Source: a virus (lineage: Duplodnaviria > Caudoviricetes). Taken from it: a DNA stretch of 64,000 nucleotides. Numbering within the stretch: the stretch's first letter is position 1; each line of letters begins with the position of its first letter. The translations under genes and the position numbers were made by a program. Under the pieces are notes generated by a model. The model was not told where the DNA came from and did no database searches. It saw nothing but the letters and a program-made list of their open reading frames with translations. Where the stretch lies: the IMG/VR virus record IMGVR_UViG_3300027805_000006; one strand, given 5' to 3'. Shown in pieces: positions 24,430-56,609 of the stretch.

Positions 24430-24450
24430 TTTTATTCCCCATAAAACTAT

Positions 24451-24458
24451 TATTTATA
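24451..24458 (-). promoter_or_regulatory. T4-type late promoter TATAAATA for the endonuclease
   Basis: Perfect TATAAATA in the 45-nt gap between the PolN stop and the endonuclease start. Confidence 0.75.
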
Positions 24459-24474
24459 GAGATATCAGCATAGA

Positions 24475-26721
24475 TTAGATTATAGATATAAAATCATCCG
24501 ATTTCAAAATTTCTGAAGGTTTAACCTCTACCAATTTGCCATCTCGCTCAACCATAATAGAGTGGTCATTTGTTACTTCCACAGTCTTTCCATCTTCAAG
24601 AGTAACTCGCCACCGTGCTTTAGACACTTTGTGTCTGTATACGGCTTTCACATTCATGTATTCGATATTATTTTTTGAGAACGACAGCGCTTTCAAGTTG
24701 GTTAATCCTTCACCAAATTGCTTACCATTTTCTCTTTCGGTTTTAATTGGACACGCATGGAAGAGCGCCTCGAGCGCCAGCGTACCATAATTAGTTTTGA
24801 CTTCTGATTGACCAATAAGAGAGTCAGTATCACCATAAATTACGGTGTTGCTGTCTGCAATATACGTATGCACGAATTTACCGTCAGCATCAACTTCAGA
24901 GTGCTTTTCCATTTTCATTGGAGCATCTGGTTCAAGCAGCGAGTGGATAGTTTCCATCATGTGGGTAGTAATCGCTCTACCGCAGGCAGTAACTGATGCG
25001 CCTAGTTCTTTTCTACCAAACCTGAAATGCGGAGATAGAAGAGCGCCGTATGTTGAGTTCAACTGAATTTTTTTCGTAAGTTGCAAAAGGTCGTAATGCT
25101 CCACCTGTCTCTCAGCGTGAGAGAGGGCGGCTGCATCGCTACCTTCTTCCTTCAACTTCTTTGCCTTCTTCGCCCACTTCTTTTTCTCAGCCTGAAGTCT
25201 CTTACGCTCGGCAAACCAGAAGGTGAGGGTATCCGGAACAATTCCTAGACCATTTCCTTGATCGAACACGCTGCCATACGCAGAGACTGCCCACTTCTTT
25301 TCTGCAAACAGTTTACGCCAATCATCTCCAGATGCTTCAAACACTTCACCGTCATCGAAGCGAAGAGAGTGTGGAAGACTATCTAGGTCAACCATAATTC
25401 CACGCCAATCAACTTCACCGTTCATAAACTGTCCCACAAACTTTTCAGGTGAGATGTTTATGGAGCGAATAACCGACGGGTACAGTGAAGTGATGTCAAC
25501 CGATCCAATCCACTCGTGCATTCCGATGTGTGGGTTTAGAACGAGAGCACCCTCAACTTTGTCTTCTTCAACAGCAGGTCGCTTGTCAGGAACAATCAGG
25601 TTATGGACGTTATGTGTGCGAACCGCAATTCCAGTTTCAACGTAGCGCACAGTGCCAAGTAGGTCTGCAAAAAGCACGCAGTTTTCGTGCGCCATCTGAT
25701 TTACTAGTTGAATAAATTTGAACTTCTGATCAAGGTCAACTAGTCCGCTGACGTCACGTATGTTATAGACGGTAAACCTTCTAAAATCATTTTTATAGAG
25801 TTGCTCTAGTGTGCCCTCATAGTGAATTTTAGATAGCCCTATTTCTTCTTGCAGAATATTTCCAAGTGAATATGACGTTCTTCCCTCGAAGGTAAACTTC
25901 TTGAATAGGTCAAGATAGTCAAGGTGGGTTCGCCCACTGAGCACGTAGATCTGTTCCTGTGCACCAAATCTTTCAACTTGCTTTGGCTTTGGAGGAGGGC
26001 ACCCCATGAAACACAACCTGTTAAGAAGATGTGGTGCCTGAAGTTCAATGCGCTTCACAATATAGGGTAAATCATAGAACTCGGAGTTCCATCCACTAAT
26101 AATATCAGCGTCTTGAATATCTGCAATTAGACACTCAAGCAGTTCAACTTCGTGCTTACAAATTTTGATTGTCAGATTTTCTACGGGTTTTAATTCGCCC
26201 TTCTTAGTTAACTCTTCAATTTCAGCATAGAGATCTTCCTCAGTTCCTGCCCAAACTGTTTTATCATCCTTAATGGGGCGCAGCACATATGTGTTGTAGC
26301 GCTTCGACCAGGATTGGAAGATAGTTACTGCATTGATGCGCGCATATGCATTAGCAGGACCAGCAAATCCTATCTTTGACGAATAATCAACCTCAATATC
26401 GATAAAGGCATAATTGACGACTGGAGTTGGAACGTCGTAGTATTCATTCATCAACACTTTGAAAAGTGGAGGAATGTCACTTTCATACTTCTTCGCATAT
26501 TGTCTTGATGCCTGCTTAAACTCATCTTCAGTATCAAAATCAAGACGCTCAAGTATCTGCCCATCGATACCTGCATACTTCCCCTTTTCACTCGGGGCAT
26601 AGAAGTAGTATGGGATATCAAAGAAACGACGCTGGCGCCCATGCTCGTTTCTTTCCCAGACAACAATCTTGTTGTTGTCCCAGTCGCGAACTGCGCCTAC
26701 ATATGACATTTTATTGGTCAC
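24475..26721 (-). CDS. gp43: family B DNA polymerase N-terminal part ending in 115-aa N-intein
   Basis: Exo motifs DIEVD, NSEFYDLPY, YNIRD; region II DITSLYPS; KIQLNSTYG; YGDTD|SLIG. Confidence 0.93.
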   Translation of the reverse strand: MTNKMSYVGAVRDWDNNKIVVWERNEHGRQRRFFDIPYYFYAPSEKGKYAGIDGQILERLDFDTEDEFKQASRQYAKKYESDIPPLFKVLMNEYYDVPTPVVNYAFIDIEVDYSSKIGFAGPANAYARINAVTIFQSWSKRYNTYVLRPIKDDKTVWAGTEEDLYAEIEELTKKGELKPVENLTIKICKHEVELLECLIADIQDADIISGWNSEFYDLPYIVKRIELQAPHLLNRLCFMGCPPPKPKQVERFGAQEQIYVLSGRTHLDYLDLFKKFTFEGRTSYSLGNILQEEIGLSKIHYEGTLEQLYKNDFRRFTVYNIRDVSGLVDLDQKFKFIQLVNQMAHENCVLFADLLGTVRYVETGIAVRTHNVHNLIVPDKRPAVEEDKVEGALVLNPHIGMHEWIGSVDITSLYPSVIRSINISPEKFVGQFMNGEVDWRGIMVDLDSLPHSLRFDDGEVFEASGDDWRKLFAEKKWAVSAYGSVFDQGNGLGIVPDTLTFWFAERKRLQAEKKKWAKKAKKLKEEGSDAAALSHAERQVEHYDLLQLTKKIQLNSTYGALLSPHFRFGRKELGASVTACGRAITTHMMETIHSLLEPDAPMKMEKHSEVDADGKFVHTYIADSNTVIYGDTDSLIGQSEVKTNYGTLALEALFHACPIKTERENGKQFGEGLTNLKALSFSKNNIEYMNVKAVYRHKVSKARWRVTLEDGKTVEVTNDHSIMVERDGKLVEVKPSEILKSDDFISII
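24478..24822 (-). mobile_element. split intein N-half (IntN, 115 aa, Ser1)
   Basis: Starts SLIGQSEV directly after YGDTD; block B VTNDHS. Confidence 0.9.
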
Positions 26722-44563: not shown

Positions 44564-44725
44564 TCAACTCCTATTCAGCACAGCCTGTAGAGCATACACG
44601 GCGTCATGTGTAGTAAAGAGTATAACATCATTTTCAATTACTGTATAGAGATTAGGTTGAATCTCATTGAGTTCATTCACGGTTTTTTCAACTTTGAGAA
44701 CTACGGTTTCGGTTTGTGTTTTCAT
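44564..44725 (-). CDS. 53-aa ORF, not in track (MKTQTET...)
   Basis: ATGA-coupled to a GVEE junction. Confidence 0.5.
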   Translation of the reverse strand: MKTQTETVVLKVEKTVNELNEIQPNLYTVIENDVILFTTHDAVYALQAVLNRS

Positions 44726-44958
44726 TCTTCAACTCCGAAATGTTCTCTTATAATCTCTGCACCAGAAATACCGTAGTCATTAACACGCAGGTTTTTAACT
44801 TGTTCAGCACATTTCCTGATCAACAACTCGGCGAACTTTTGGTTATACAGTTGAAACCACGCTTGGTTAAATGTATGGCGATCGGCTATACCCTCCGAAG
44901 CAATATCGTTGATAGGTTGAAATGCCTCTAGAGCAAGTTCTTTAATTCGTTCGTTCAT
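44722..44958 (-). CDS. MNERI-family paralog 1
   Basis: MNERIKEL..KFAELLIRKC..EHFGVEE. Confidence 0.75.
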   Translation of the reverse strand: MNERIKELALEAFQPINDIASEGIADRHTFNQAWFQLYNQKFAELLIRKCAEQVKNLRVNDYGISGAEIIREHFGVEE

Positions 44959-45197
44959 TTGCATTCTTCTTCATAAATTCTTGTCAGGTTTTTGAATACG
45001 TCCATAGCAGAATCGTTAGTCAAAACGTGAGCAGCCACCACGGTAATGATATCTTTGTAAATCAATCCGGCGAATCGTTGGGCACTGGCTTCACCTTGCC
45101 AATATACGGTAGGAGGATTGCCATCAAGTGCAGGATCACCATCGTAGTGGCGAGTTCCGTGTGCTTGGCGATATAGTTCTTTCAATCGTTCGTTCAT
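44955..45197 (-). CDS. MNERI-family paralog 2
   Basis: MNERLKELY..RFAGLI; non-canonical C-half. Confidence 0.7.
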   Translation of the reverse strand: MNERLKELYRQAHGTRHYDGDPALDGNPPTVYWQGEASAQRFAGLIYKDIITVVAAHVLTNDSAMDVFKNLTRIYEEECK

Positions 45198-45454
45198 ACT
45201 AAGTTATCCTTTAACCACCCGATAACGGTCCATTGTTTTACAACAAAAGTTCCATCACCGAATACCGGATTAGCAAAATCGTTCAGAATTTCAAATGGAT
45301 TTTCCGGATCATCTAACCTAACACCATGCTGTTTACAGAAACCAATTAATTCATCTCTATCATAAAATATCTTGCTGGGACCATGGACACCAGGCATTTC
45401 AAAGTTGAATGATTTCCTCCATAATCCTATGTCTCTGGGATAAAAGGTAATCAT
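45194..45454 (-). CDS. hypothetical protein
   Basis: ATGA-coupled at both ends. Confidence 0.6.
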   Translation of the reverse strand: MITFYPRDIGLWRKSFNFEMPGVHGPSKIFYDRDELIGFCKQHGVRLDDPENPFEILNDFANPVFGDGTFVVKQWTVIGWLKDNLV

Positions 45455-45681
45455 TCTTCAACTCCGAAATGTTCTTTAATCTTTGAACCAATCACCAACC
45501 CAGGACCTGACATTTTCGGTAGGTCATATGTAGAGGCAACATCGACACAATCCTTGATGATCAACTCTGCGAACTTGTCCATAAAGTTAACCTGTGTTTC
45601 CCAAGAATTGTTTTGCCCGCTTGGATAGGCGGCGGAGGCAGTAGCAGCCTTGTCCCAAAGTTCTTTAATTCGTTCGTTCAT
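45451..45681 (-). CDS. MNERI-family paralog 3
   Basis: MNERIKEL..KFAELIIKDC..EHFGVEE. Confidence 0.75.
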   Translation of the reverse strand: MNERIKELWDKAATASAAYPSGQNNSWETQVNFMDKFAELIIKDCVDVASTYDLPKMSGPGLVIGSKIKEHFGVEE

Positions 45682-45866
45682 TCTACCACCTCGAATGTAA
45701 TTTTGACCCTAGAACCCACTGGCAATTTGTCGCTGAACCAAAAGTAATCTTCGGGCAAATTGTTTTTAGAGTGATCAAACAATGCTTCAAGACGATTCAG
45801 GATTGGCAAGTTCCTTGCCGTTTCCTCATCATCGAACAAGGTCATTTCAAATTCTGCTTTCATCAT
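45678..45866 (-). CDS. hypothetical protein
   Basis: ORF track; coupled. Confidence 0.55.
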   Translation of the reverse strand: MMKAEFEMTLFDDEETARNLPILNRLEALFDHSKNNLPEDYFWFSDKLPVGSRVKITFEVVE

Positions 45867-46018
45867 TCACTCCCTACCGTCTTCCCAAGTTCGATGGTAA
45901 CTTCTTGGCACTTGCCGTAATTGATGAAACTGCGCCGAACTTCATGCGCTTCTTCCAGTGTAGCGCAGGGCAAACGAGCAGTCTCGTCGTCCTGCAGGAT
46001 AACTACGGTGTAAGTCAT
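45863..46018 (-). CDS. 51-aa ORF, not in track (MTYTVVIL...)
   Basis: Coupled at both ends; translated by hand. Confidence 0.5.
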   Translation of the reverse strand: MTYTVVILQDDETARLPCATLEEAHEVRRSFINYGKCQEVTIELGKTVGSE

Positions 46019-46215
46019 CACCGATCTCCAATAATGTCCACTGACTTGACCAGTTGATCTCGGGAATCAACATATTCGCATTCTTCCTTGGAAACTGATC
46101 GAACAGCAATTCCCAAATCCAATTGCTTTTTGATAAATGCCGAGGCATCAGAGTAGTTGCGGAATGCTCGTTGTTGGTAGGGAACCGCACCATAGTTAAC
46201 TGTATATTGCTTCAT
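46018..46215 (-). CDS. hypothetical protein
   Basis: Starts at a GVEE junction. Confidence 0.55.
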   Translation of the reverse strand: MKQYTVNYGAVPYQQRAFRNYSDASAFIKKQLDLGIAVRSVSKEECEYVDSRDQLVKSVDIIGDR

Positions 46216-46457
46216 TCTTCAACTCCGAAAATTCTACGGATCTTGCCGCTGATTGCACTAGCGGTATCATCGCAGCCTTGCTCGTATGGCTCCATCTCCC
46301 CGTATTCAGCAGGACTGGTGCTATGATGTTCGGTCATAGCCAAAATCGCACATTCCTTCGCAATCAACTCGGCGAACTTTAACTTGTCTTCATTAGTCCA
46401 ATGAACTCCAACCTTTTCATTGAGGTTGTAGATCATTTGTTGAATTCGTTCGTTCAC
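46212..46457 (-). CDS. MNERI-family paralog 4
   Basis: MNERIQQM..KFAELIAKEC..IFGVEE. Confidence 0.75.
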   Translation of the reverse strand: MNERIQQMIYNLNEKVGVHWTNEDKLKFAELIAKECAILAMTEHHSTSPAEYGEMEPYEQGCDDTASAISGKIRRIFGVEE

Positions 46458-46466
46458 AGCAGCTCC

Positions 46467-46727
46467 TTACATCGGGCGGAGGAGCGAGCCAGACACGTTC
46501 CAGTTGCCGTCAAGACCGCAGTTCACCGAGACCATCTTGATCTTGACCTTAGTGACAGTACCCGTAACGTCCTTGCCGAATCGCGAGCAGAAGAACTTGA
46601 CCTTCTGGCCGGCTTGGAACGATTGAGCTGCTTGCACGCTGCGAACCTTCATGATCTTGGCGATCTGAGCGTTCAGGCTGCGGAGTTCGGTAGAGGACAT
46701 TGCGTTGAGGGTTTTCATGTCGATCAT
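46467..46727 (-). CDS. early protein with SH3/KOW-like C-half
   Basis: FQAGQKVKF..VTGTVTKV; AAGGA RBS; directly behind a promoter. Confidence 0.65.
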   Translation of the reverse strand: MIDMKTLNAMSSTELRSLNAQIAKIMKVRSVQAAQSFQAGQKVKFFCSRFGKDVTGTVTKVKIKMVSVNCGLDGNWNVSGSLLRPM

Positions 46728-46756
46728 TTTGTTTCCTTGCTTGATTTGATAGAACA

Positions 46757-46786
46757 ATTATATCAAGAAGTCAAATTGTTGTACAC
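46757..46786 (-). promoter_or_regulatory. early promoter GTGTAC-N18-TATAAT
   Basis: Duplicated cassette; see 47008. Confidence 0.7.
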
Positions 46787-46805
46787 CAGTAGTTGACTAA
46801 AACAG

Positions 46806-46976
46806 TCACCTATACGAGCTGCTGTATTCCACAATAAAGCAAGAGGGAAAGATTGTGTAGAACATATCAGCCGCGTCAAAAAGATCCTTAGCAAAGATCG
46901 TGTAGTCGAACTTCACGACAGACTCAGGAACCATAGGATCGACCAACTCGCCGCCAACAAACTTGTACTCATTCAT
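46806..46976 (-). CDS. 56-aa ORF, not in track (MNEYKFVGG...)
   Basis: AAGGA RBS; behind a promoter. Confidence 0.55.
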   Translation of the reverse strand: MNEYKFVGGELVDPMVPESVVKFDYTIFAKDLFDAADMFYTIFPSCFIVEYSSSYR

Positions 46977-47007
46977 TTCGTGTTCCTTTGCTTGATTTGT
47001 TAGAACT

Positions 47008-47037
47008 ATTCTATCAAGAAAGTCAATTGTTGTACAC
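47008..47037 (-). promoter_or_regulatory. early promoter GTGTAC-N18-TAGAAT
   Basis: Near-copy of the 46757 cassette. Confidence 0.65.
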
Positions 47038-47070
47038 CGCGCAGAACAATAGTTGACTAAAACAGTACAC

Positions 47071-47241
47071 TTAGCCTAAGTTGTTGATTCTAAACGCTTT
47101 TTTCAGAATCGACGCATCCTGCAGAGCGGTGGACAAACGGTCCATGGTAGCGTATTCCAAACCATTACCTACATAAACAGCCGGCTTACCCATTTGCTTT
47201 ACAGCAAGACTTTGAATTTCATGCCACGGACAAACTTTCAT
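47071..47241 (-). CDS. 56-aa ORF, not in track (MKVCPWHEIQ...)
   Basis: Starts at a GVEE junction. Confidence 0.5.
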   Translation of the reverse strand: MKVCPWHEIQSLAVKQMGKPAVYVGNGLEYATMDRLSTALQDASILKKAFRINNLG

Positions 47242-47477
47242 TCTTCAACTCCGAAATGTTCTTTCAAATCTGACACACAATGCATCCTGCCTGTATTGTA
47301 ATCGCTATTACCTACTCTGCTATTACAAACTTGAATACATTCCCTGACAATCAACTCGGCGTACTTTTCCATTTGTTCAGAACTGACCACATAGTCTCCT
47401 TCGTTCCAATCACTGGGTAATCCAAGAGGTTTCCACCAATCAGCCTGTTCAGCAAGTTCTCTAATTCGTTCGTTCAT
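47238..47477 (-). CDS. MNERI-family paralog 5
   Basis: C-half identical to that of the 50026 gene. Confidence 0.78.
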   Translation of the reverse strand: MNERIRELAEQADWWKPLGLPSDWNEGDYVVSSEQMEKYAELIVRECIQVCNSRVGNSDYNTGRMHCVSDLKEHFGVEE

Positions 47478-47719
47478 TCTTCAACTCCGAAATATTTCTT
47501 AATACGAAGGGCACATTCCATCTCTACAGTATCCCGAGGATCTGCTTTTTCCATGACACAAGCATGGACACATTCTTCAATCAACAGCTTGGCGAATCTT
47601 TGGGCACTGACCTCATCTTGCCAATATACGGTAGGAGGATTGCCATCAAGTGCAGGATCACCATCGTAGTGGCGAATGCTGTGGGATTGACGGTATAGTT
47701 CTTGAATTCGTTCGTTCAT
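47474..47719 (-). CDS. MNERI-family paralog 6
   Basis: N-half shares a 59-bp block with the 44955 gene; start trimmed to MNERIQ. Confidence 0.75.
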   Translation of the reverse strand: MNERIQELYRQSHSIRHYDGDPALDGNPPTVYWQDEVSAQRFAKLLIEECVHACVMEKADPRDTVEMECALRIKKYFGVEE

Positions 47720-47895
47720 AAGAGCAACGATCCTTTCTTTTCGAGACTGACTTGATGTTCTTCCATAGTACGATTGACACATAAACCACCGTCGTACAGA
47801 AGTGGTTGCCCAATCCAGCCCAACCATTCACAAGAATTTGGAGTGAATTTGCGACCGGTTGTGTTCCAGGCTTGCTTGAATTCTTCGTTCATCAT
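47716..47895 (-). CDS. 59-aa ORF, not in track (MMNEEFK...)
   Basis: Coupled at both ends. Confidence 0.45.
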   Translation of the reverse strand: MMNEEFKQAWNTTGRKFTPNSCEWLGWIGQPLLYDGGLCVNRTMEEHQVSLEKKGSLLL

Positions 47896-48065
47896 TCAAC
47901 TCCGAAATGTTCAAGAATGCTACTTGCCTCTGACCTTCGGGAAACTTGATCGGCACATTCCCTGACAATCAACTCAGCGAACTTCTCAAGTTTAGTAGGA
48001 ACTCCGTTAGGATTATGTACTAACAAGCCAGCTTCATTGGCAAGTTCTCTAATTCGTTCGTTCAT
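47892..48065 (-). CDS. MNERI-family paralog 7 (57 aa, not in track)
   Basis: MNERIRELANEAG..EKFAELIVREC..EHFGVE. Confidence 0.72.
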   Translation of the reverse strand: MNERIRELANEAGLLVHNPNGVPTKLEKFAELIVRECADQVSRRSEASSILEHFGVE

Positions 48066-48430
48066 TCTTTAACCCCATCAGTGAACATTTGTTCTTCTAG
48101 TTGTGCTAAAAGTGTTCTAACTCTTTGCGTGTCTTCATCATATAGAGCGCTGCGCATTTCGATGATTAGTGGTCTAAACTCGCCAAACACTTCCTCAACC
48201 ATCGCTCGCTTAACTGAAAAAATCATTTCATGATATGCATCTGCGACCAACCCCTCTTCTAGCCAGCAGCTTGTCTCTAATTTAACGCCTATTTTATATT
48301 TTTTTGCTAGTCGGAGATGATCTGCTTCTGAAACAGTTCTGGATACATCAAGATAATTTAGTTTCAGATTGCGCGCCGCCTTAACATCACCAGTTAAAGT
48401 CGCGTTAATTACTTTTGCTAATTTACTCAT
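48062..48430 (-). CDS. hypothetical protein ending GVKE
   Basis: ORF track. Confidence 0.65.
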   Translation of the reverse strand: MSKLAKVINATLTGDVKAARNLKLNYLDVSRTVSEADHLRLAKKYKIGVKLETSCWLEEGLVADAYHEMIFSVKRAMVEEVFGEFRPLIIEMRSALYDEDTQRVRTLLAQLEEQMFTDGVKE

Positions 48431-48572
48431 GAAATTTTCACCTTTTTAGAGTTCTGAATTATACAAATAGACACAGATTTTTTTGCAGTATTAGAATGCT
48501 TACAGCACCAATCTGCATACTTAGTGCCTACTGCACCTACATTGTGGTGCAAACACCCTTTACAGTGTTTAT

Positions 48573-49421
48573 TCATTTAATGACCTCAATATTAGTAAAG
48601 CCGCGACACTTCTTGCCGTGATACTTGTACGAATCAATAGTAGAGCCGTATCGCTTGAAGGCTTCTAGAGGATCTTCTCCGTATGCTATTTCAACAGAGT
48701 GACCCATAGTTCCGCCTTTCCACGATCCTTTATTATAACCTGTTTCTTTTGAGAATTCAAGGTCTAATGTGTACTTGATCAAGGGCTTCCTGATATAGCC
48801 TAGCCACTTGCACCATCCAATGCCATGACGCCACATTCGTTTTGAGATGTAGCATGTTGCAATAATCTCTTCGCCGTCATAGTCATTGAAACGGAACCTG
48901 ATCTTGTTTACGGCTTGTCTGATTTTACGTTGTTCTTCCCAGTCAGTCCTGCCATTCTTGTCGGCAAGGATAGCATATGATGACCACTCGGGTGTGAAGA
49001 ATTCTTCGTGTTGAAATGTCATGTTCTTCCAAGGGATCCAGACAACCTTCGTGTGGTCAGAGTTCTTCTTATCTCTTGAAGACCAAGATCCGGGTTGAAT
49101 ACCGTAATTGATGTGAACAGAGTCTTCTGTAATAGAGATTCCATACTGGCGTTGGGTGTAGTCCCAATAACCACCTGATGGACTCTTTGACCACGATTCC
49201 TTTGACGTGTCTATCCACTTCTTGCGAGGCTTGAACAACTCGGGAATCCGAAACCACCAAGAGTGCCCAAAGATTGCAACGTGGAGATTACAGTAATTTG
49301 TTCTGGAATGACCGCTTTCATAGTACTCATGGGGATTGGATATAGTCAGTGCGAATGACCAAAAGTCATTCTTTGCATACTCTTTCAACTTAAACAACAT
49401 AAAAGTTCCAGTCAATCTCAA
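48573..49421 (-). CDS. hypothetical Trp/aromatic-rich protein
   Basis: 282-aa ORF; start uncertain. Confidence 0.65.
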   Translation of the reverse strand: MRLTGTFMLFKLKEYAKNDFWSFALTISNPHEYYESGHSRTNYCNLHVAIFGHSWWFRIPELFKPRKKWIDTSKESWSKSPSGGYWDYTQRQYGISITEDSVHINYGIQPGSWSSRDKKNSDHTKVVWIPWKNMTFQHEEFFTPEWSSYAILADKNGRTDWEEQRKIRQAVNKIRFRFNDYDGEEIIATCYISKRMWRHGIGWCKWLGYIRKPLIKYTLDLEFSKETGYNKGSWKGGTMGHSVEIAYGEDPLEAFKRYGSTIDSYKYHGKKCRGFTNIEVIK

Positions 49422-49686
49422 TGAAATTATTAGCAGATTCTATAATTTTTAATTGCTGCTCAATCTCAAATATGTCAGACCTTTCTTGCCATGTCCCAAC
49501 CTTATACCCGTGAATGTTTCGAAGTCCTCGCAGTCTTTCAGCTGTACTAATATAGACAATTTCCTGACTATAAACTGTAAGACCTGCGTCAATCATCTTC
49601 TGCGCAAGAGTTGCTCTAAACTGGTTAAACTGTTCATTATTTCCAGCAATCACATAAATCTTTTCTGAGTTAAACATCCTTGTCAT
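49390..49686 (-). CDS. hypothetical protein
   Basis: ORF track. Confidence 0.55.
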   Translation of the reverse strand: MTRMFNSEKIYVIAGNNEQFNQFRATLAQKMIDAGLTVYSQEIVYISTAERLRGLRNIHGYKVGTWQERSDIFEIEQQLKIIESANNFIEIDWNFYVV

Positions 49687-49700
49687 CTCCCGTATCTAAT

Positions 49701-50042
49701 TTAGCAAGTCACTTTTGTGGGGCAATTATGCCGTGGGCAAACATATCCCATAACTTCTCCATTTGTCCCAATGCCGCATACTGAGCAACCTCTAGAATAT
49801 TGTGGGTGAAGAACAATATTCGGCTTGCCCTTGGGAAGCAGCATATTAATTGTGAGCATATATTCTTCTAGTCGCTGCTTAAGAAATTCAATTTCATCTC
49901 GGTACATTCTTCCTGCTTCATTATGACCACATTGATATACTCTTTCTAACAATGGCGCTAGTAAAGCTGCTCCGGGATACCCGCCATCCTCTAATCCCTT
50001 GATAGCTTGATCTACAATATCTTGCTTATGACTCATCTTCAA
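49701..50042 (-). CDS. protein with C-terminal CxxC..CxxxxC motif
   Basis: GCSVCGIG..GYVCPRHNCP; likely start at MSHKQ. Confidence 0.6.
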   Translation of the reverse strand: MKMSHKQDIVDQAIKGLEDGGYPGAALLAPLLERVYQCGHNEAGRMYRDEIEFLKQRLEEYMLTINMLLPKGKPNIVLHPQYSRGCSVCGIGTNGEVMGYVCPRHNCPTKVTC

Positions 50043-50244
50043 CTCCGAAATGTTCTTTCAAATCTGACACACAATGCATCCTGCCTGTATTGTAATCGCT
50101 ATTACCTACTCTGCTATTACAAACTTGAATACATTCCCTGACAATCAACTCGGCGTACTTTTCCAACACTAACTCCAAAAGGATACCTTCTTGTTCAAAG
50201 GCATGTTTGGCACCTTTAGCCAGTTCTTGTATTCGTTCGTTCAT
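50026..50244 (-). CDS. MNERI-family paralog 8 (chimera)
   Basis: N-half equals the 50832 gene; C-half equals the 47238 gene. Confidence 0.78.
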   Translation of the reverse strand: MNERIQELAKGAKHAFEQEGILLELVLEKYAELIVRECIQVCNSRVGNSDYNTGRMHCVSDLKEHFGVEDES

Positions 50245-50423
50245 TTTTCAACTCCAAAATGTTCTTTAATCATGTCACCAGTGCCAGCACAATTACCTGT
50301 TGCAATAATACATTCCCGCACGATCAATTCGGCAAACTCATCAGCAACATCTTGCCAGTTCATTGGTGTTTTTGTGTGCTTAACAACACACTGGGCCCAA
50401 AGTTCTCGGATAGGATCGTTCAT
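50241..50423 (-). CDS. MNERI-family paralog 9
   Basis: MNDPIREL..EFAELIVREC..EHFGVEK. Confidence 0.72.
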   Translation of the reverse strand: MNDPIRELWAQCVVKHTKTPMNWQDVADEFAELIVRECIIATGNCAGTGDMIKEHFGVEK

Positions 50424-50656
50424 TCTTCAACTCCGAAATGTCGTTTGATCTTATTTCCGACATATACCAATGCCTCGTTGAAGCCTTCATAATATTCGCT
50501 TTTGGTGTTGGTATATTGACTATTAACAGACAACTCAGCACATTCTTTCACAATTAGTTCGGCGAACTTTTCTAAATCTTGCTCAATACCAAATCGTACC
50601 ATTGATACCGCATCAAAACCAGCCTGTAGAGCAAGGTCTTTAATTCGTTCGTTCAT
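50420..50656 (-). CDS. MNERI-family paralog 10
   Basis: MNERIKDL..EKFAELIVKEC..HFGVEE. Confidence 0.75.
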   Translation of the reverse strand: MNERIKDLALQAGFDAVSMVRFGIEQDLEKFAELIVKECAELSVNSQYTNTKSEYYEGFNEALVYVGNKIKRHFGVEE

Positions 50657-50835
50657 TCTTCATCTCCGAAATAACTATCAAAACATTTTTCGCACGTTCC
50701 GGAGATTGCTACTTCTGCATGTCCCTCTTTTGTGAAGATATTCACACCAAACTTGAACGGCTGCTTACAATCAATACACCTAGCGGTGTCCTTGTCAACC
50801 CATTCTCTACCTACTAGGCGTTGTTCAGTTGTCAT
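50653..50835 (-). CDS. small CxxC..CxxC protein ending FGDEE
   Basis: ORF track; coupled. Confidence 0.6.
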   Translation of the reverse strand: MTTEQRLVGREWVDKDTARCIDCKQPFKFGVNIFTKEGHAEVAISGTCEKCFDSYFGDEE

Positions 50836-51071
50836 TGTTTAACTCCAAAATGTTTTTTAATCACTGTTGAACCTGTTAGTAATGCTTTGTTATATCCGTT
50901 GTCAAAATCTTCAACTGATTCAAATACAGGGACAGTAATACTTTCTAAAGTCAATGCACATTCTCTAACAATCAACTCGGCGTACTTTTCCAACACTAAC
51001 TCCAAAAGGATACCTTCTTGTTCAAAGGCATGTTTGGCACCTTTAGCCAGTTCTTGTATTCGTTCGTTCAT
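50832..51071 (-). CDS. MNERI-family paralog 11
   Basis: N-half identical to the 50026 gene. Confidence 0.75.
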   Translation of the reverse strand: MNERIQELAKGAKHAFEQEGILLELVLEKYAELIVRECALTLESITVPVFESVEDFDNGYNKALLTGSTVIKKHFGVKQ

Positions 51072-51237
51072 TTTCTATTCATCCATCCGATAATGAAAAA
51101 TATTGGCATCGCTGGCAACATAATAGGATAGTCATACCATTTGCTCTTTCGGAATTTATATCCCATAATATTCAGGAAAAACACAACTCCTGCGATAGTC
51201 CACAGAATGTAAATTGCTATACAAATCAGAAATGTCG

Positions 51238-51468
51238 TCATTCTTCAACTCCGAAATGTTTGCGGATGTTTTCAATGGACTTATCTACAGCCCAGACAAC
51301 ATCGTCGTTTTCACAATTGCTCACACCGATCATGGCAATTTGACTAACACATTCCCGAATCAACAACTCGGCAAACTTCTCTAATTCTAGTCTACTAAAA
51401 GTCCAAGAATCGATTACTGGATAATCTCTCAGTACCTCGAGTGCGATATCATATACGCGTTCATTCAT
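51238..51468 (-). CDS. MNERI-family paralog 12
   Basis: MNERVY..EKFAELLIREC..HFGVEE. Confidence 0.75.
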   Translation of the reverse strand: MNERVYDIALEVLRDYPVIDSWTFSRLELEKFAELLIRECVSQIAMIGVSNCENDDVVWAVDKSIENIRKHFGVEE

Positions 51469-51617
51469 CTAGATGCTCCTCAATTAAAAACCGTCACCAG
51501 CACCAAAAGAAGTACAGACATAGGCACATAGAGAATGTAGCACATCCAGAATAAACCTTCAATTAATGCATCAAACATATCACGCATCATGCGCTCCTAT
51601 TTTGTTATAACTATTGG

Positions 51618-51884
51618 TCAAGCAAAGTCTTTACGATTGTGACGCTCGCGAGCAGAACTAGCGAAATTGCTGATGTTGCCACACTTGTCTTCCCAACGAA
51701 GCAGACTACGAGCAGTCCAACCAATGTCTATCTTGCTTTCGCAGACAGCCTCTTGGTTCACAACACCATTGAGAAAGATACGCACATGATATCGACCGTT
51801 GATGCAGCGAACAGTAACTTCATGCTCGCACTCGCCTACGATGCAACGCTGGATTTGGATAAGTTGAGTATAGCGGTCTTTCAT
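51618..51884 (-). CDS. hypothetical protein
   Basis: GAGGAG RBS. Confidence 0.65.
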   Translation of the reverse strand: MKDRYTQLIQIQRCIVGECEHEVTVRCINGRYHVRIFLNGVVNQEAVCESKIDIGWTARSLLRWEDKCGNISNFASSARERHNRKDFA

Positions 51885-52132
51885 CTAGATGCTCCTCAAA
51901 TAGTACGTTCGTGTGCTGGGTTATTGAAACAAGTACAGTATTCCATAGAGCACCAGCAAGGGTCCATAGAGTGTAGCACACACAATGCCCAGTAGCAGAA
52001 GAAAGGAAGCAAAGAACTCAACAAACTCGCCAAGTTCGCTCATGCTATTCTCCTCACTTACCCAGGTAGTGAACAATTACGGTGGGACCCACTAGGCATA
52101 GCATTGCTACGATACCAATCAGAATATCCATG

Positions 52133-52330
52133 TTAACCCTCAATTCGTTGTTCAACCAGCTGCGCCATGTACAGAGTGTCCCGGTACCGAGCAACCCACG
52201 ACTCTGAACTCATCGCATTTTCAAAGCTTTTTATCGCTTCTTGCTTAGTGCGATAAGAACCGAGCAGGAAGGGACCCTGCTCGTCTCTGCCACCTACCAC
52301 ATAGCCATGATCCCAGTTCTTCATGTTCAA
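52133..52330 (-). CDS. hypothetical protein
   Basis: ORF track. Confidence 0.55.
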   Translation of the reverse strand: MNMKNWDHGYVVGGRDEQGPFLLGSYRTKQEAIKSFENAMSSESWVARYRDTLYMAQLVEQRIEG

Positions 52331-52650
52331 GCCTCCACAGTCAGCACCGGAGCTGGATCAGTAATACGGCCTTCGTACTCCAGCTGGCTCTTCTCGTACC
52401 AGGTCAGGAAGTCGTCTGCCACAACCTTGTAGGAAACGATGTACTCGCGATACCCCTCGTTGTTGCACTCAATTTGGCCACGCACACGGTCCACGATCAC
52501 CTCGATCATGTCGCACTCGTCCACGTTCTTGACCACGTAGTCGCTGCCGCCCTTGGCCTTCCAGTAGGCATCAGCACCAGTACCCAGCGAACCATCTTCG
52601 CGCCAGGCGTAGTTTTCGAAACATTGAGTAGTGATCAGAAGTTTGGTCAT
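52327..52650 (-). CDS. conserved early phage protein (ENYAW..YWKAKGG)
   Basis: AGGAGG RBS; behind a promoter; start trimmed. Confidence 0.7.
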   Translation of the reverse strand: MTKLLITTQCFENYAWREDGSLGTGADAYWKAKGGSDYVVKNVDECDMIEVIVDRVRGQIECNNEGYREYIVSYKVVADDFLTWYEKSQLEYEGRITDPAPVLTVEA

Positions 52651-52693
52651 CGTTTCCTCCTTATCCCTAAGTGTTAATTTAAACAATGAGACT

Positions 52694-52722
52694 ATTATAC
52701 ATCAACCAATAATCTTGTACAC
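52694..52722 (-). promoter_or_regulatory. early promoter GTGTAC-N17-TATAAT (TG-extended)
   Basis: Spacer nearly identical to the 59764 promoter. Confidence 0.8.
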
Positions 52723-52740
52723 TACTATTTTGTAACAAGC

Positions 52741-52770
52741 AAAAACCTGTAACTAAAGTTACAGGTTTTT
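52741..52770 (-). terminator. perfect hairpin, probable terminator
   Basis: AAAAACCTGTAACT-AA-AGTTACAGGTTTTT. Confidence 0.65.
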
Positions 52771-52796
52771 TGAAACTATTTTACAGGTTACTAACT

Positions 52797-52982
52797 TTAA
52801 TCGTCAATCCATTCGTGCTTATATTTCTTCCAGCACTGAATAGCCTTTTTTAGATTATCCATCTGTTCTAGACGAATATGATCCATGATTCCCCATTCAT
52901 GATATGTGTTTGTCATCTTCCAAAGACGATCATGTCTCTCTTGTAGAGTTGCAATAACAACATCGTATTTTTCTTCAGTCAT
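52797..52982 (-). CDS. hypothetical protein
   Basis: ORF track. Confidence 0.6.
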   Translation of the reverse strand: MTEEKYDVVIATLQERHDRLWKMTNTYHEWGIMDHIRLEQMDNLKKAIQCWKKYKHEWIDD

Positions 52983-53257
52983 TGTTTACACCTTGCGCGG
53001 ATAGCGGCTGCGCAGACGGAGATCTGCCATGCAGCACTGCGCAGACTGATTGTTTCATCCGTATCTGCGCCGTCACATGCCTGTTCATTTTTCATTGCTT
53101 TGGCATCGCACACCTTCGCACACGCCTCACGCTCGGCAGCGGCAACAAGTTCAGCAAAGCGCGCGAACACGGGGTAGAGATCGCGCTCTACCCACGCGAC
53201 GTGTTCAAACATGGCCCCAGCCTCCTGCGCCATATGCATGATGTCGTCTCTGGTCAT
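52979..53257 (-). CDS. MTRDDI..RFAELVAAAEREACA family protein (distantly MNERI-like)
   Basis: ORF track; GAGGAG RBS. Confidence 0.7.
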   Translation of the reverse strand: MTRDDIMHMAQEAGAMFEHVAWVERDLYPVFARFAELVAAAEREACAKVCDAKAMKNEQACDGADTDETISLRSAAWQISVCAAAIRARCKQ

Positions 53258-53799
53258 GCTAACTCCTCATTTGGAAATTCTTTAGTTGGTCGAAACATAT
53301 ACTCCGACTTCTCAGGAATAACATATGGAAAAGTTACAGGAACTCTGGACTCATATGATGTGAAATGGGATTTAAACGGCTTACCGTCATTAATACTTGG
53401 AACTGATACCCATTCCCAGAACACTTTGCCATCGATATTGTATGCACCATTGTTATCTTTGAAGACACTGCCGCAACGCTTGTTCTGAAACAGAGGACCT
53501 CCATCAGTGCCATAGGATCTGCTAATATCAACCCACTCCTGGTCTTCACCAGTTAATGGTGTAACTGGCTTGAATCTTGCAAGCGTATCAAACAAATTAA
53601 GCGTATATGGCGCAGTAGTTCCAGAGTGCCCTTCATCACTGAATGTCTCTAGCAACTTTAGAACGTGATTGCAAATTTGTTCTTGCATTTCGTCGGAGAA
53701 CTTGCCGTTCTCATCCATCCAGCCAGCGGCCCTAAACTCATTCTTTGCGTAAAATTCGTAGTTGCTCATTCTAATCCCTCGTAAAACATTATGCGCCAC
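53254..53799 (-). CDS. conserved phage protein (EGHSG..APY)
   Basis: ORF track; likely start at MSNYE. Confidence 0.65.
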   Translation of the reverse strand: MAHNVLRGIRMSNYEFYAKNEFRAAGWMDENGKFSDEMQEQICNHVLKLLETFSDEGHSGTTAPYTLNLFDTLARFKPVTPLTGEDQEWVDISRSYGTDGGPLFQNKRCGSVFKDNNGAYNIDGKVFWEWVSVPSINDGKPFKSHFTSYESRVPVTFPYVIPEKSEYMFRPTKEFPNEELA

Positions 53800-53838
53800 A
53801 TTTCTTTTACAATTTTAATCAAAAATCAACCTGCGCAA

Positions 53839-54177
53839 TTAATATTTTAAATGTAACCAACCAATATCCTTTTCCATTGGAGTTATAGTAACTTCTTTCT
53901 TTGAAGACTCAATCAAATTTGATAGAACACCCATTCCATAGACTGAGCATCCATACGCATTTTTGCTACACCCGTATGTTGAGCCTGACGCTCCACGAAA
54001 GTAGAAGCAATTTTCATCTTCAGAGACTGAAACAATTCCACTGTTCATCTTCCAACTATCGCCTCCCGCAAACCCACCGACCCAAGTTGCAAAAACACGG
54101 TAGTGCTGTGGAAGCTCCTCTTTGATCGGTGTAATCTTTAAAACCATCCACCTGTCTGGCATATAATCTTTGCTCAT
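53839..54177 (-). CDS. conserved phage protein (GDSWKMNSGI)
   Basis: ORF track. Confidence 0.65.
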   Translation of the reverse strand: MSKDYMPDRWMVLKITPIKEELPQHYRVFATWVGGFAGGDSWKMNSGIVSVSEDENCFYFRGASGSTYGCSKNAYGCSVYGMGVLSNLIESSKKEVTITPMEKDIGWLHLKY

Positions 54178-54458
54178 GTACGTGCTCCAAATTGTTTTCT
54201 GATGATAGTGATCTGTTCATCAAGAATAGCATTTTTCTGATATAATGAAGTTTGCCCTGAATATGTTCCACCGCTGTACGGATCATCTTTCTTACTTGTG
54301 TCTAAAACATTTATGCATTCATTCACAATTGATGTTGCAAAATCTTCAAGTGTCAACAGGGATTGGCCATGTCCTGAGAAAGATACAAATTCTCCATGCA
54401 CGTCTTTTCCGAAGTAAAGCCCTGCTTGCTCTGCTAGACTTCTAATTCGCTGATTCAT
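54174..54458 (-). CDS. MNERI-family paralog 13 (divergent)
   Basis: MNQRIRSLAEQAG..FATSIVNEC..KQFGAR. Confidence 0.68.
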   Translation of the reverse strand: MNQRIRSLAEQAGLYFGKDVHGEFVSFSGHGQSLLTLEDFATSIVNECINVLDTSKKDDPYSGGTYSGQTSLYQKNAILDEQITIIRKQFGART

Positions 54459-54461
54459 TAT

Positions 54462-54818
54462 TTAATCCTCTAATTTTATAAATCGCTTAGTATTTGTTTT
54501 ACGAGTTCCGCTCATCCACGGTTGAATAGACATGTTGTTCAAATACATCTCCATTGTAGGAATGAAACCAAGATCCTGCTGAATATGATCCTCTGCAATG
54601 TCTCTAGGAGAATATTCTCTACCATCTGAATTTATGCGCGTACGACCAAAAACTTTTTCTACTAAAAAGCACCCAAATGCGGAGTGTAAAATAGCGCGGT
54701 GGCGGACATCAGCAACTGCTTGCTTCGTCGAATCGATAAAGTCGTCAATGTCGGCATAGTCATCTGGCTTTCCACCATACTTCTTAACATGAATCTTACT
54801 GTGTAGAAATGGCTTCAA
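54462..54818 (-). CDS. DUF6915-like protein
   Basis: HS..KKYGG..DY..I..F.D.TK..D.RHRAILH. Confidence 0.6.
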   Translation of the reverse strand: MKPFLHSKIHVKKYGGKPDDYADIDDFIDSTKQAVADVRHRAILHSAFGCFLVEKVFGRTRINSDGREYSPRDIAEDHIQQDLGFIPTMEMYLNNMSIQPWMSGTRKTNTKRFIKLED

Positions 54819-55087
54819 GGAAGCCTCTTGACTATTGATACGACTTCACCGCTGTTGGCTTCATAACTCATGCACCCTCGCTCAAGACACGAATGGTCAA
54901 TCATGAATTTATTTTCAATCGATGTCGCGCTCATTGACGCTCGAAGATGTTCAATTTCTATAGCAGCCTCTTCAAGGAGGTCAGCAATTCGGTCAGGCTT
55001 ACCCTCCTGCACGCTCTTCCTCGATGGGATTTGGCGCCTAATCTCAGCACGCTTTCTTAGCCGATAAACAACATCATTCTCATCCAT
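54815..55087 (-). CDS. conserved phage protein (RLRKRAEIRRQI..DRIADLLEEAA)
   Basis: ORF track. Confidence 0.65.
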   Translation of the reverse strand: MDENDVVYRLRKRAEIRRQIPSRKSVQEGKPDRIADLLEEAAIEIEHLRASMSATSIENKFMIDHSCLERGCMSYEANSGEVVSIVKRLP

Positions 55088-55088
55088 C

Positions 55089-55325
55089 TTATTCCTTTGA
55101 CTCCATTGCCCAATGCACTACCTTCCAATCATCTAGACAGTCCTCAAAGCAGTAAATTGCATCAACATGGGTCTGACCATACTTTTCACACATCTTGCTA
55201 TACCAGTAGGGCCAGTATTCTTTCCTCACATCTTCTTCAGACATTGTAACATATTCTGGGTCACCTGCATCATTTTTTGGTTGGACGAAGGTAAAGTATC
55301 TCATCACCATTCTCCCTCTGCGCAA
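55089..55325 (-). CDS. hypothetical protein
   Basis: ORF track; start uncertain. Confidence 0.55.
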   Translation of the reverse strand: MRRGRMVMRYFTFVQPKNDAGDPEYVTMSEEDVRKEYWPYWYSKMCEKYGQTHVDAIYCFEDCLDDWKVVHWAMESKE

Positions 55326-55492
55326 GACATCAGGTACCTATAAACCGCCTCTGGATCTTTCTCAAATACTTCTTCTGGCGTGCAGCCAAAAAATTTATTA
55401 TGTCTATTCCACCAATCCACAGCAAGGTCAAGTCCTAGCATACCAACTAGAAGAGCGTGGCACCTCCTATGAAGATTATCAGAGGATAGCAT
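55304..55492 (-). CDS. hypothetical protein
   Basis: ORF track. Confidence 0.55.
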   Translation of the reverse strand: MLSSDNLHRRCHALLVGMLGLDLAVDWWNRHNKFFGCTPEEVFEKDPEAVYRYLMSCAEGEW

Positions 55493-55769
55493 CTTTAACT
55501 ATTATCTTAGTTGGACAATCATCGCGTGGGCACACATAACCAATCACCTCACCATTTGCGCCAATACCACAGACCGAGCACCCCTTATTCGCCCCAGGGA
55601 CGTAAGGAGCACTTCGGTTTTCTCGTCCATTGTTCATTGCCTCAAGGTATCCACAATCATAGACGTTCGATAGCATCTGTGAAAATAAATCTGCAAAGTT
55701 TCTTGGCATACCTGCAGAGACAAGAGTGTCTACAGTATTTTCAATAATTTGTTGCTTATATGTTTTCAA
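55479..55769 (-). CDS. paralog of the 49701 gene (Cys4 C-terminus)
   Basis: GCSVCGIGANGEVIGYVCPRDDCP. Confidence 0.62.
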   Translation of the reverse strand: MKTYKQQIIENTVDTLVSAGMPRNFADLFSQMLSNVYDCGYLEAMNNGRENRSAPYVPGANKGCSVCGIGANGEVIGYVCPRDDCPTKIIVKDAIL

Positions 55770-55990
55770 GAGACATACTCCTTGACATTCTGCAATTTAA
55801 AATGAGATGCAATTTTATTTGAAACCGAAGTATCATGTGTATCGGTAATTTTTATACATTCCTGAATAATTAGCCGTGCAAACTTGTCGCGGTCAAATCG
55901 GTGATGCGTGCTAGGAAAACCACCGAAGCCAAAGTCACTCGGTTCTTCAACCCAGCATTTTGAGGAAATTTGATAAATTAAATCGCTCAT
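55766..55990 (-). CDS. MNERI-family paralog 14 (divergent)
   Basis: DKFARLIIQEC..IASHFK. Confidence 0.6.
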   Translation of the reverse strand: MSDLIYQISSKCWVEEPSDFGFGGFPSTHHRFDRDKFARLIIQECIKITDTHDTSVSNKIASHFKLQNVKEYVS

Positions 55991-55993
55991 TTA

Positions 55994-56191
55994 TTACTCA
56001 CTTTTAAAATGGTCTTTTAGACGTTGGGAATACTCACTTGCAGGTACGCGCCGATCAACAAGGTCTTGAACAACTGCAGCACATTCTTTAACAGAAAGTG
56101 CAAACAGCCTATCGAATTTTTCTTCATGAAACCACACGTCATAGTCACCAAATTCAGCCTCATCTAAAATGCTCTTAAGTCTGTGATTCAT
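55994..56191 (-). CDS. MNERI-family paralog 15 (divergent)
   Basis: MNHRLKSI..FALSVKEC..LKDHFKSE. Confidence 0.62.
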   Translation of the reverse strand: MNHRLKSILDEAEFGDYDVWFHEEKFDRLFALSVKECAAVVQDLVDRRVPASEYSQRLKDHFKSE

Positions 56192-56394
56192 CGCTTAACT
56201 CCGAATTTTTCTGCCATATACCAGCCAACGCTAATATCCCGATCGTAATCGGGATATCCCTGCTCCTTCAACTCTGCAATTTTAGCACATTCCTGAACAA
56301 TCAACTCGGCGAACTTTTCTGGATTAAGGTAGGCAGGACCAACACCGTCTTCTTCCCAGCATTGATCAACTAGTTCTTTAATTCGTTCGTTCAT
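56188..56394 (-). CDS. MNERI-family paralog 16
   Basis: MNERIKEL..EKFAELIVQEC..KFGVKR. Confidence 0.75.
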   Translation of the reverse strand: MNERIKELVDQCWEEDGVGPAYLNPEKFAELIVQECAKIAELKEQGYPDYDRDISVGWYMAEKFGVKR

Positions 56395-56609
56395 TCCGAA
56401 ACTCCGAAATGTTGTTCAATATAAGCACCAGCCATTAGTTGACCAGCATATAGTTCATTATTCGTACCGCGATTATAACATTGGTTCAAGCATTCTTTAA
56501 TAATCAACTCAGCAAACTTTTCCGCAAACGAAACAGGATGTCCAAAGTCTGGACTTACCGCAGTTACTTCCCAAGCCTGTTCGGCAAGTTCTTTAACTCT
56601 CTCATTCAT
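56391..56609 (-). CDS. MNERI-family paralog 17
   Basis: MNERVKEL..EKFAELIIKEC..HFGVSE. Confidence 0.75.
   Translation of the reverse strand: MNERVKELAEQAWEVTAVSPDFGHPVSFAEKFAELIIKECLNQCYNRGTNNELYAGQLMAGAYIEQHFGVSE

Follow-up and report, generated by a model that had tools for sequence, protein, structure and literature searches.

A mosaic gene in an array of small phage paralogs, and half-gene reassortment at short conserved blocks

Three paralogs with halves in common

The DNA analyzed here (the window) is a stretch of 64,000 nucleotides (nt) from a virus of the Caudoviricetes (Duplodnaviria), IMG/VR virus record IMGVR_UViG_3300027805_000006. An array of small paralogous genes lies at 44.7 to 56.6 kb of this stretch, where a profile built from 12 of the paralogs matched 17 members. 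The proteins of this family have ∼60 to 90 residues (about 75 is typical), and alignments and a hidden Markov model (HMM) resolved them into three constant blocks, namely, an MNERI start, a KFAELIVREC core, and an HFGVEE tail (HMM positions 1 to 12, 32 to 44, and 66 to 74, respectively), with two variable segments between them. All 17 copies were complete open reading frames (ORFs) with a start codon, and most had a coupled ribosome-binding site (RBS). Unrelated small ORFs lay between them, and most links of this chain were ATGA stop-start overlaps. All family genes and motif copies in the window were on the minus strand, as direct repeats. Three members, designated genes A, B, and C (Table 1), are the subject of this report; B is a mosaic whose N-terminal half (N-half) is that of C and whose C-terminal half (C-half) is that of A.

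Comparison of the three genes was based on a repeat finder, a k-mer test, and a three-way alignment. The repeat finder detected 100% identity between the A and B copies of the 130-nt tract and aligned 50131-50247 with 50958-51074 at 98% over 117 nt, with 2 mismatches; by the k-mer test, the exact part of the latter match was 107 nt. The 25-nt core was present in three exact copies in the window, one per gene, and in none of 100 shuffled sequences. In the alignment, the match of B to C began 3 nt ahead of the ATG and extended through the core, whereas the match of B to A took in the core, the C-half, and the tail as far as its final bases (GAAGA); the flanks of B bore no resemblance to A or C on either side. 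All three limits of the mosaic fell within the framework blocks of the family. A, B, and C were intact ORFs, although the C terminus of B was atypical (GVEDES), with the ATG of the next gene 1 base nearer than in the usual ATGA overlap. A structural model of B (predicted local distance difference test [pLDDT] score of 83) contained three helices, with the crossover block in the first half of the central helix (helix 2).

These results reproduced the two repeats and the common core that had been claimed in an earlier sequence-only reading of this DNA. That reading had also offered, as one simple interpretation, B as the N-half of the gene at 50832 joined to the C-half of the gene at 47238 and had spoken of new loop combinations. 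The mosaic composition was borne out by the alignment, but B as the recipient is just one possibility; likewise, segments have been recombined, but in the predicted three-helix bundle the variable parts form helices and not loops.

Table 1. Positions of the array, of the three genes with their common tracts, and of other features in the window
Feature	Position	Strand	Description
Array of 17 family paralogs	44722..56609	-	MNERI... / ...KFAELIVREC... / ...HFGVEE; profile search
Gene A	47238..47477	-	79-amino-acid family member; core, C-half, and tail in common with B
Gene B	50026..50244	-	72-amino-acid mosaic family member; N-half as in C, C-half as in A
Gene C	50832..51071	-	79-amino-acid family member; start block, N-half, and core in common with B
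130-nt tract, A copy	47242..47371		Core, C-half, and tail; equals 50036-50165
130-nt tract, B copy	50036..50165		100% match to 47242-47371 (repeat finder)
107-nt exact tract, B copy	50141..50247		Start block, N-half, and core; equals 50968-51074
107-nt exact tract, C copy	50968..51074		Match to 50141-50247
25-nt crossover interval	50141..50165	-	Encodes EKYAELIV; copies at 47347-47371 and 50968-50992
827-nt unit between 107-nt copies	50141..50967	-	C-half of C, zinc-ribbon ORF, g50420, g50241, N-half
Start block of C, ATGAACGAACGAAT...	51057..51074	-	Point where the 152-kb ENA contig departs from the window
Older common N-half	45069..45198	-	89% over 130 nt versus 47591-47720; two paralogs, C-halves unrelated
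Acb3 (CBASS inhibitor) homologue	48573..49421	-	E value of 7e-48; inside array
Tad3 (type I Thoeris inhibitor) homologue	53257..53769	-	E value of 4e-35; inside array

A history of whole-gene duplication followed by rapid local divergence of the unlike halves, whether by diversifying selection or by hypermutation resembling that of diversity-generating retroelements (DGRs), is suggested by the hypervariable segments on a constant frame, which are like those of DGR targets. The unlike halves of A, B, and C were, however, unalignable and of different lengths, and the adjoining common halves were 100% identical, with zero substitutions and no A-specific mismatch pattern. Because identical halves adjoin unalignable halves of another length, point mutation and DGR-type mutagenesis of adenines are ruled out. 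Furthermore, other phages had the same half-types in other pairings, and the ∼30 of 47 window ORFs of at least 150 amino acids that were scanned against Pfam or PHROGs included no reverse transcriptase. An origin of the unlike halves by local divergence is scarcely credible on this evidence.

B has neither the upstream flank of C nor the downstream flank of A, which excludes its origin by one unequal crossover between those two genes. Because its flanks differ from those of both, the exchange is that of a patch and not a simple unequal crossover.

Second assembly, loop contig, and strain variants

The window is itself a metagenomic assembly, and a mosaic such as B could be produced by the collapse or mis-threading of repeats of 107 to 130 nt. 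A second assembly (ENA ERZ27247435) had been made with MEGAHIT at a k of 141, which exceeds both repeat lengths. By look-up of the exact protein, B was located on contig k141_1451683 (38 kb), whose first 13 kb equaled the window from 50276 downward with 1 mismatch and contained both B and A. This contig begins 29 nt upstream of the 107-nt repeat and runs through B, a downstream gene of 111 amino acids, the Acb3 homologue, and A; the ENA copy of B had the same chimeric structure and the same flanks, which are unique on both sides, and at this k value every k-mer through B was locus-specific. The B junction also requires a 27-mer (the 25-nt core plus one base on either side) that was absent from both A and C. 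The region was polymorphic and fragmented in the ENA assembly, and no single read was seen across the B junction, as might be expected of an artefact. Nevertheless, because an assembly with k above both repeat lengths gave the same chimera in the same flanks, we consider an assembly artefact very improbable.

A junction absent from the window was detected in the same ENA assembly. Contig k141_1883623 was 968 nt long with identical first and last 141 nt and hence formed a closed loop, whose period of 827 equals the distance between the two 107-nt copies. The order of elements around the loop was g50420, g50241, the common N-half, the C-half of C, a zinc-ribbon ORF, and back to g50420, with the junction from g50241 through the N-half to the C-half of C being the one not present in the window. 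All loop k-mers of up to 108 nt occurred in the window, but 11 119-mers and 33 141-mers did not, indicating that the assembly graph held molecules in which g50241 was followed by C rather than by B. Given those foreign k-mers, a pure graph artefact was judged unlikely. The loop is as would be expected from unequal exchange between the 107-nt copies, leading either to a tandem duplication or to an excised circle, two outcomes that are indistinguishable at the contig level.

Variation at the array was also observed between strains. ENA contig k141_1445494 (152 kb) followed the window downward from 54241 and as far as the opening bases of C. Past the start block it carried a different family gene (80 amino acids) and three unrelated ORFs (106, 59, and at least 46 amino acids; L083:3171-4306), at which point it ended, so that gene C and the downstream sequence were replaced. 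This contig represents a strain-level replacement starting at the start block, at a hyperplastic spot that is polymorphic within one sample. A contig from a public run (X4) was ∼99% identical to the window over the 111-amino-acid gene and the tail of B and unlike it from 50061, which suggests a relative with another C-half at the position of B. In a contig from an RNA run (X1), of which only the ends were placed, the spacing was as expected for the tail of g51238, TM57, and the start of C.

The direction of transfer was considered in the light of the core and of these variants. EKYAELIV is a Tyr version of the core that was rare in the family: of 332 genes, 8 had it, and A, B, and C are three of these. 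The sample came from 81 phage contigs, made up of the window and 80 of the at least 349 IMG/VR loci found to encode the family in a scan with the family alignment. The 25-nt cores of A, B, and C were identical, and other pairs of paralogs in the window averaged 16 of 27 identities. If both tracts had been copied into B, A and C must therefore have had the same rare core beforehand. No such coincidence is needed if B was a donor at least once, and donation of one or more tracts by B is equally or more economical. It is a tentative possibility, with the odds somewhat against it, that B was the source, the start-to-core tract having been copied to C and the core-to-tail tract to A, or that one tract went each way. 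Two hints run counter to this. Gene g50241, upstream of B, ends with a rare ...GVEK (AAA) that matches the bases upstream of the ATG of C, hinting weakly that the N-tract may have moved from the C context into the B context, and X4 would imply that the C-half at the position of B was swapped in one lineage.

Reassortment in the family and the setting of the array

The pairing of halves was examined across the 332 genes by clustering of the variable segments. In uncorrected counts, 50 of the 63 N-types with multiple members had two or more C-type partners, and two or more N-type partners were found for 45 of the 59 C-types. The C-half of g50420 was nearly invariant in 50 database proteins whose N-halves were unrelated and differed in length, and a relative of the C-half of A (81% identity) was found behind yet another N-half on contig L016. 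Pairs with one half in common were present within single contigs, with a common C-half in L012 (97% over 144 nt) and L065 (100% over 98 nt) and a common N-half in L048 (97% over 146 nt) and in window paralogs 44955 and 47474 (Table 1). On contig L063, the gene at 11906-12112 had an N-half similar to that of the gene at 10007 (95%, 120 nt) and a C-half similar to that of the gene at 10590 (90%, 105 nt) and is a second, independent three-gene chimera. The tract ends in L012, L048, L065, L063, and the window pair all lay at HMM position 1, at positions 32 to 44, or from position 72 to the end. When all pairs were searched for in-register tracts of at least 60 nt and at least 85% identity (n = 143), ∼90% of the free tract ends were in the three blocks or outside the gene, and the variable segments make up ∼55% of the gene length. 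Qualitatively, these comparisons point clearly to half-gene reassortment at the core as the normal mode of evolution of the family.

The blocks were also conserved at the DNA level. The codons for Arg4 (CGA, 85% in the family, against background values of 13% for long ORFs on these contigs and 19% for the variable segments of the family genes themselves), Ala36 (GCC, 75% versus a background of 19%), Glu37 (GAG, 84% versus 24 to 27%), Leu38 (TTG, 77% versus 23 to 28%), Gly71 (GGA, 92% versus 23 to 24%), and Val72 (GTT, 88% versus 37 to 38%) were fixed well beyond codon bias. Fixation in the tail is explained by the GGAG that it holds, which serves the ATG of the next gene, but no translational reason was evident for the core. 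Junction DNA was 90 to 98% identical over 50 to 59 nt between otherwise unrelated phage contigs, and the summed contig depth at motif positions reached thousands in three DNA metagenome runs.

These three observations would fit blocks, above all the core, that are dedicated recombination sites in a purpose-built array. The array would then be a combinatorial generator of small binding proteins that operates without reverse transcriptase, in which two helical specificity modules are continually re-paired, within a phage or between coinfecting phages, and selected against host defense or takeover targets; a phage nuclease or the strand-invasion machinery might enter preferentially at the core. 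Frequent exchange alone, however, would homogenize the blocks by concerted evolution with no need for a special enzyme. Moreover, crossover intervals spanned 25 to 27 nt and gave no indication of cutting at one fixed position, the core also occurred in synonymous variants, and no nuclease or recombinase gene was associated with the arrays in the loci inspected. We regard dedicated sites, and the generator built on them, as unlikely. The simplest account is that the blocks supply homology for exchange and are homogenized by it.

A separate observation concerned short motifs within the blocks. Both the core and the tail (e.g., 50141-50165 and 50036-50060) carry GAGTTGA, followed some bases on by GAATG. 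In the tail these are the Shine-Dalgarno sequence and the ATG of the next gene. The ATG of the core is not in frame, and the ORF that it starts has only five codons.

The family is undescribed and very large. A single word-limited search identified 964 member proteins at an E value of 0.001 among 4,988 candidates, and nearly all members named in the sources were termed "hypothetical protein." Of the contigs found to encode g50420 in the protein search, the longest had 329,993 bases. The nearest 100 Atlas clusters listed were all unnamed, and those given in detail were 98 to 100% viral. No member reached the gathering score in Pfam (the best, a weak single-member match, had an E value of 0.013), PHROGs gave no convincing match (one weak single-member match, with an E value of 0.0084), PADLOC had no model for these proteins, and the motif strings were absent from the literature covered by a text search. 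The model of g50420 (pLDDT score of 70) was a small helical bundle. Fold searches (Foldseek against PDB, VIA-align wide, and AFDB clusters) produced only generic helical matches, with Z scores of 5.5 or less, and a search of BFVD produced uncharacterized phage proteins only.

The Acb3 and Tad3 homologues within the array (Table 1) indicate that it may be part of an antidefense island. Elsewhere the window encodes a DnaB-type helicase, a primase, a family-B polymerase with an intein-like piece, an M23 peptidase, a 5′-3′ nuclease, and a PD-(D/E)XK nuclease. A megablast search of 44 to 54 kb against INPHARED phages gave no match, and no relative of the 111-amino-acid gene downstream of B was found in IMG/VR or JGI metagenomes. 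Relatives of the Acb3 homologue with 83 to 85% identity were present on two metagenome contigs (L087 and L088, from JGI and ENA). On these contigs, homologues of the same accessory genes (Tad3-like, a 122-amino-acid gene, and small ORFs) surrounded Acb3 in a different order, which indicates whole-gene reshuffling besides half-gene exchange. Because the accessory gene order differs, they contain no orthologous B position that can be compared.

Several further features of the window were noted. Paralog 44955-45197 (minus strand) has the family N-half and core, but its C-half lacks the HFGVEE tail (it ends in ...EEECK), and its last codons overlap the start of the next gene (MQMNERI); it is either a member with an acquired nonfamily C-half or a decayed member. 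The zinc-ribbon-like ORF at 50653-50835 (minus strand; 60 amino acids, four cysteines) is not a family member but ends in ...FGDEE, with a junction of the same type to the next gene, and unrelated genes therefore also use the family tail/RBS block. Two intergenic copies of a 58-nt element (46730-46787 and 46981-47038; 84% identical) flank a small ORF at 46806-46976 and carry a promoter-like TGTACA-17-TATAAT on the minus strand, the only arrangement seen in the array that resembles the PeSL repeats of T4-type phages discussed below. The region of the family-B polymerase (22482-26721, minus strand) appears to be in pieces, with exonuclease and polymerase domains and a terminal intein-splicing match in ORF 24475-26721, a match only to a PHROG of unknown function in ORF 23437-24429, and a match to the C-terminal part of phage DNA polymerases in ORF 22482-23447. 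The polymerase could be split or intein interrupted.

Mechanism and comparison with known systems

We estimate a probability of roughly 85% that ordinary homologous exchange or gene conversion at short blocks links A, B, and C. Recent recombination or gene conversion at the central motif had been proposed in the sequence-only reading, together with the suggestions that breakpoints in relatives might concentrate there, that recombinant junctions might be present in the population, and that the repeats might instead be assembly artefacts. The proposal is supported by exact halves beside unalignable halves, by the k = 141 assembly, which spoke against an artefact, by the breakpoints in relatives, which concentrated at the core and the two terminal blocks with half-types reassorted, and by the new junction of the loop contig, which places a recombinant in the population at the contig level.

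In the mechanism that we propose, the nearly identical block DNA of all copies would act as short homology patches for the general recombination machinery of the phage. Two recent nonreciprocal exchanges, as gene-conversion patches or double crossovers, would connect the three genes, one with its ends in the core and tail (A and B) and the other with its ends in the start block and core (B and C). The outcome would be a new pairing of N-half and C-half that is in frame, coupled to its neighbors, and predicted to form a three-helix bundle. The same process would have reassorted halves throughout the family and between phages, and the resulting 107-nt direct repeat may now allow further unequal exchange, with duplication or excision of the 827-nt unit. 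The enzymology is presumably that of phage homologous recombination.

Several points weigh against this interpretation. The genes identified in the window do not include a recombinase. The evidence is at the level of contigs and not of reads, and the two assemblies may share reads. None of the Logan k = 31 contigs from public runs bridged the B junction, which neither supports nor contradicts it; most of those placed came from other family genes, via the conserved blocks. The type-pairing and tract-end counts were not corrected for relatedness, and the pairs are not phylogenetically independent. Clustering of ends at the blocks would be expected anyway, since the variable parts are without mutual homology, and it is for this reason that clustering indicates homologous exchange and not the purpose of the blocks. 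Lastly, neither the GVEK match nor X4 was decisive for the direction of transfer.

Biologically, the process probably serves to diversify small host-binding proteins encoded by an early region with many antidefense genes; the array surrounds homologues of proven genes of this kind. The A-B-C set is an example, at zero divergence, of phages building small proteins by re-pairing ready-made halves at short blocks of identical DNA, with the reading frame, the predicted fold, and translational coupling kept. Judging from the loop contig and the strain variant, exchange of this kind may still be under way in phage populations. Such a process is expected in itself, but its scale, the zero-divergence case, and the population-level junctions make it directly testable. 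The family could serve as a tractable natural library of two-module mini-binders, if binding is indeed its function, and as a model system in which recombination across homologies of 25 nt could be quantified in phage populations.

Comparisons were made with several known systems of variation. DGRs, which often occur in phages, also vary defined segments on a constant scaffold; they require a reverse transcriptase and a template repeat and alter adenines, whereas whole preexisting segments are exchanged here. The repeats are not a pair of the adenine type, the 130- and 107-nt tracts being identical and the mismatches in the 117-nt extension being C/T and G/A on the minus strand, and a DGR was rejected. 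A shufflon or invertase (Rci, Gin/Cin) was also rejected, as the repeats are direct and on the minus strand rather than inverted and no recombinase family was found among the neighbors scanned. In pilE/pilS and vlsE, a single expression site receives nonreciprocal patches, bounded by conserved sequence, from silent partial cassettes. Patch transfer between paralogs is a likeness to these systems, but every copy in the array is complete and translationally coupled; silent-cassette antigenic variation of the pilE/pilS type was rejected given that all 17 copies are complete ORFs, most with a coupled RBS.

Wu, Wu, and Black are said to have found, in 1991, amplifications and duplications of the Hp17 type in T4 that arose at short homologies; these concerned unrelated genes and were obtained by laboratory selection. 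Tandem duplication by unequal exchange between direct repeats, tens of bases long, of a T4-type genome corresponds to one reading of the loop contig. The difference is that the repeat here is itself the putative product of an earlier half-gene exchange.

A closer parallel is provided by the gp38 adhesins of T-even phages, in which, according to passages of Trojet et al. (2011; PMC3157838) that cite Tetart et al. (1998), glycine-rich motifs separate hypervariable segments and exchanges fall in or near conserved motifs. In both cases a single protein has hypervariable segments set between conserved motifs, general recombination (presumably so in the array) operates without a reverse transcriptase, and chimeric members have exchange points in or beside the motifs (here, the window triple, the L063 triple, and the L012, L048, and L065 pairs). 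The differences are considerable, in that gp38 is a virion adhesin encoded by one gene, whereas the family is an unrelated, predicted three-helix bundle of ∼75 residues with 17 paralogs in an early region and only two variable modules. The terminal motifs here also double as translational-coupling junctions, so that whole genes are exchangeable as well. The resemblance is one of mechanism and not of ancestry.

The second parallel is with the PeSL, short repeats in hyperplastic regions of T4-type phages that are preferred sites of homologous exchange and shuffle small accessory genes; exchange between neighboring copies gives mini-circles of a few hundred bases, as in RB49 (Arbiol et al. 2010, PMC2839356; PMC4122927). 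These mini-circles may parallel the 827-nt loop contig, which could be either a circle or a tandem duplication. PeSL are, however, intergenic and consist of a promoter and a terminator in ∼100 bp, whereas the blocks here are coding sequence with RBS and stop-start overlaps within one operon, and one of the exchange sites is in midgene. Neither promoter-like sites (39 versus 31.6 ± 6.3 in shuffled sequences) nor terminator-like sites (11 versus 9.3 ± 3.3) were enriched in the array, and a PeSL regulatory cassette was rejected, the junctions being coding sequence with ATGA overlaps and not a promoter with a stem-loop terminator. Overall, these comparisons indicated that the mechanism is of a known type, as in gp38 motif shuffling and PeSL cassettes, and that the family in which it operates is new to description.

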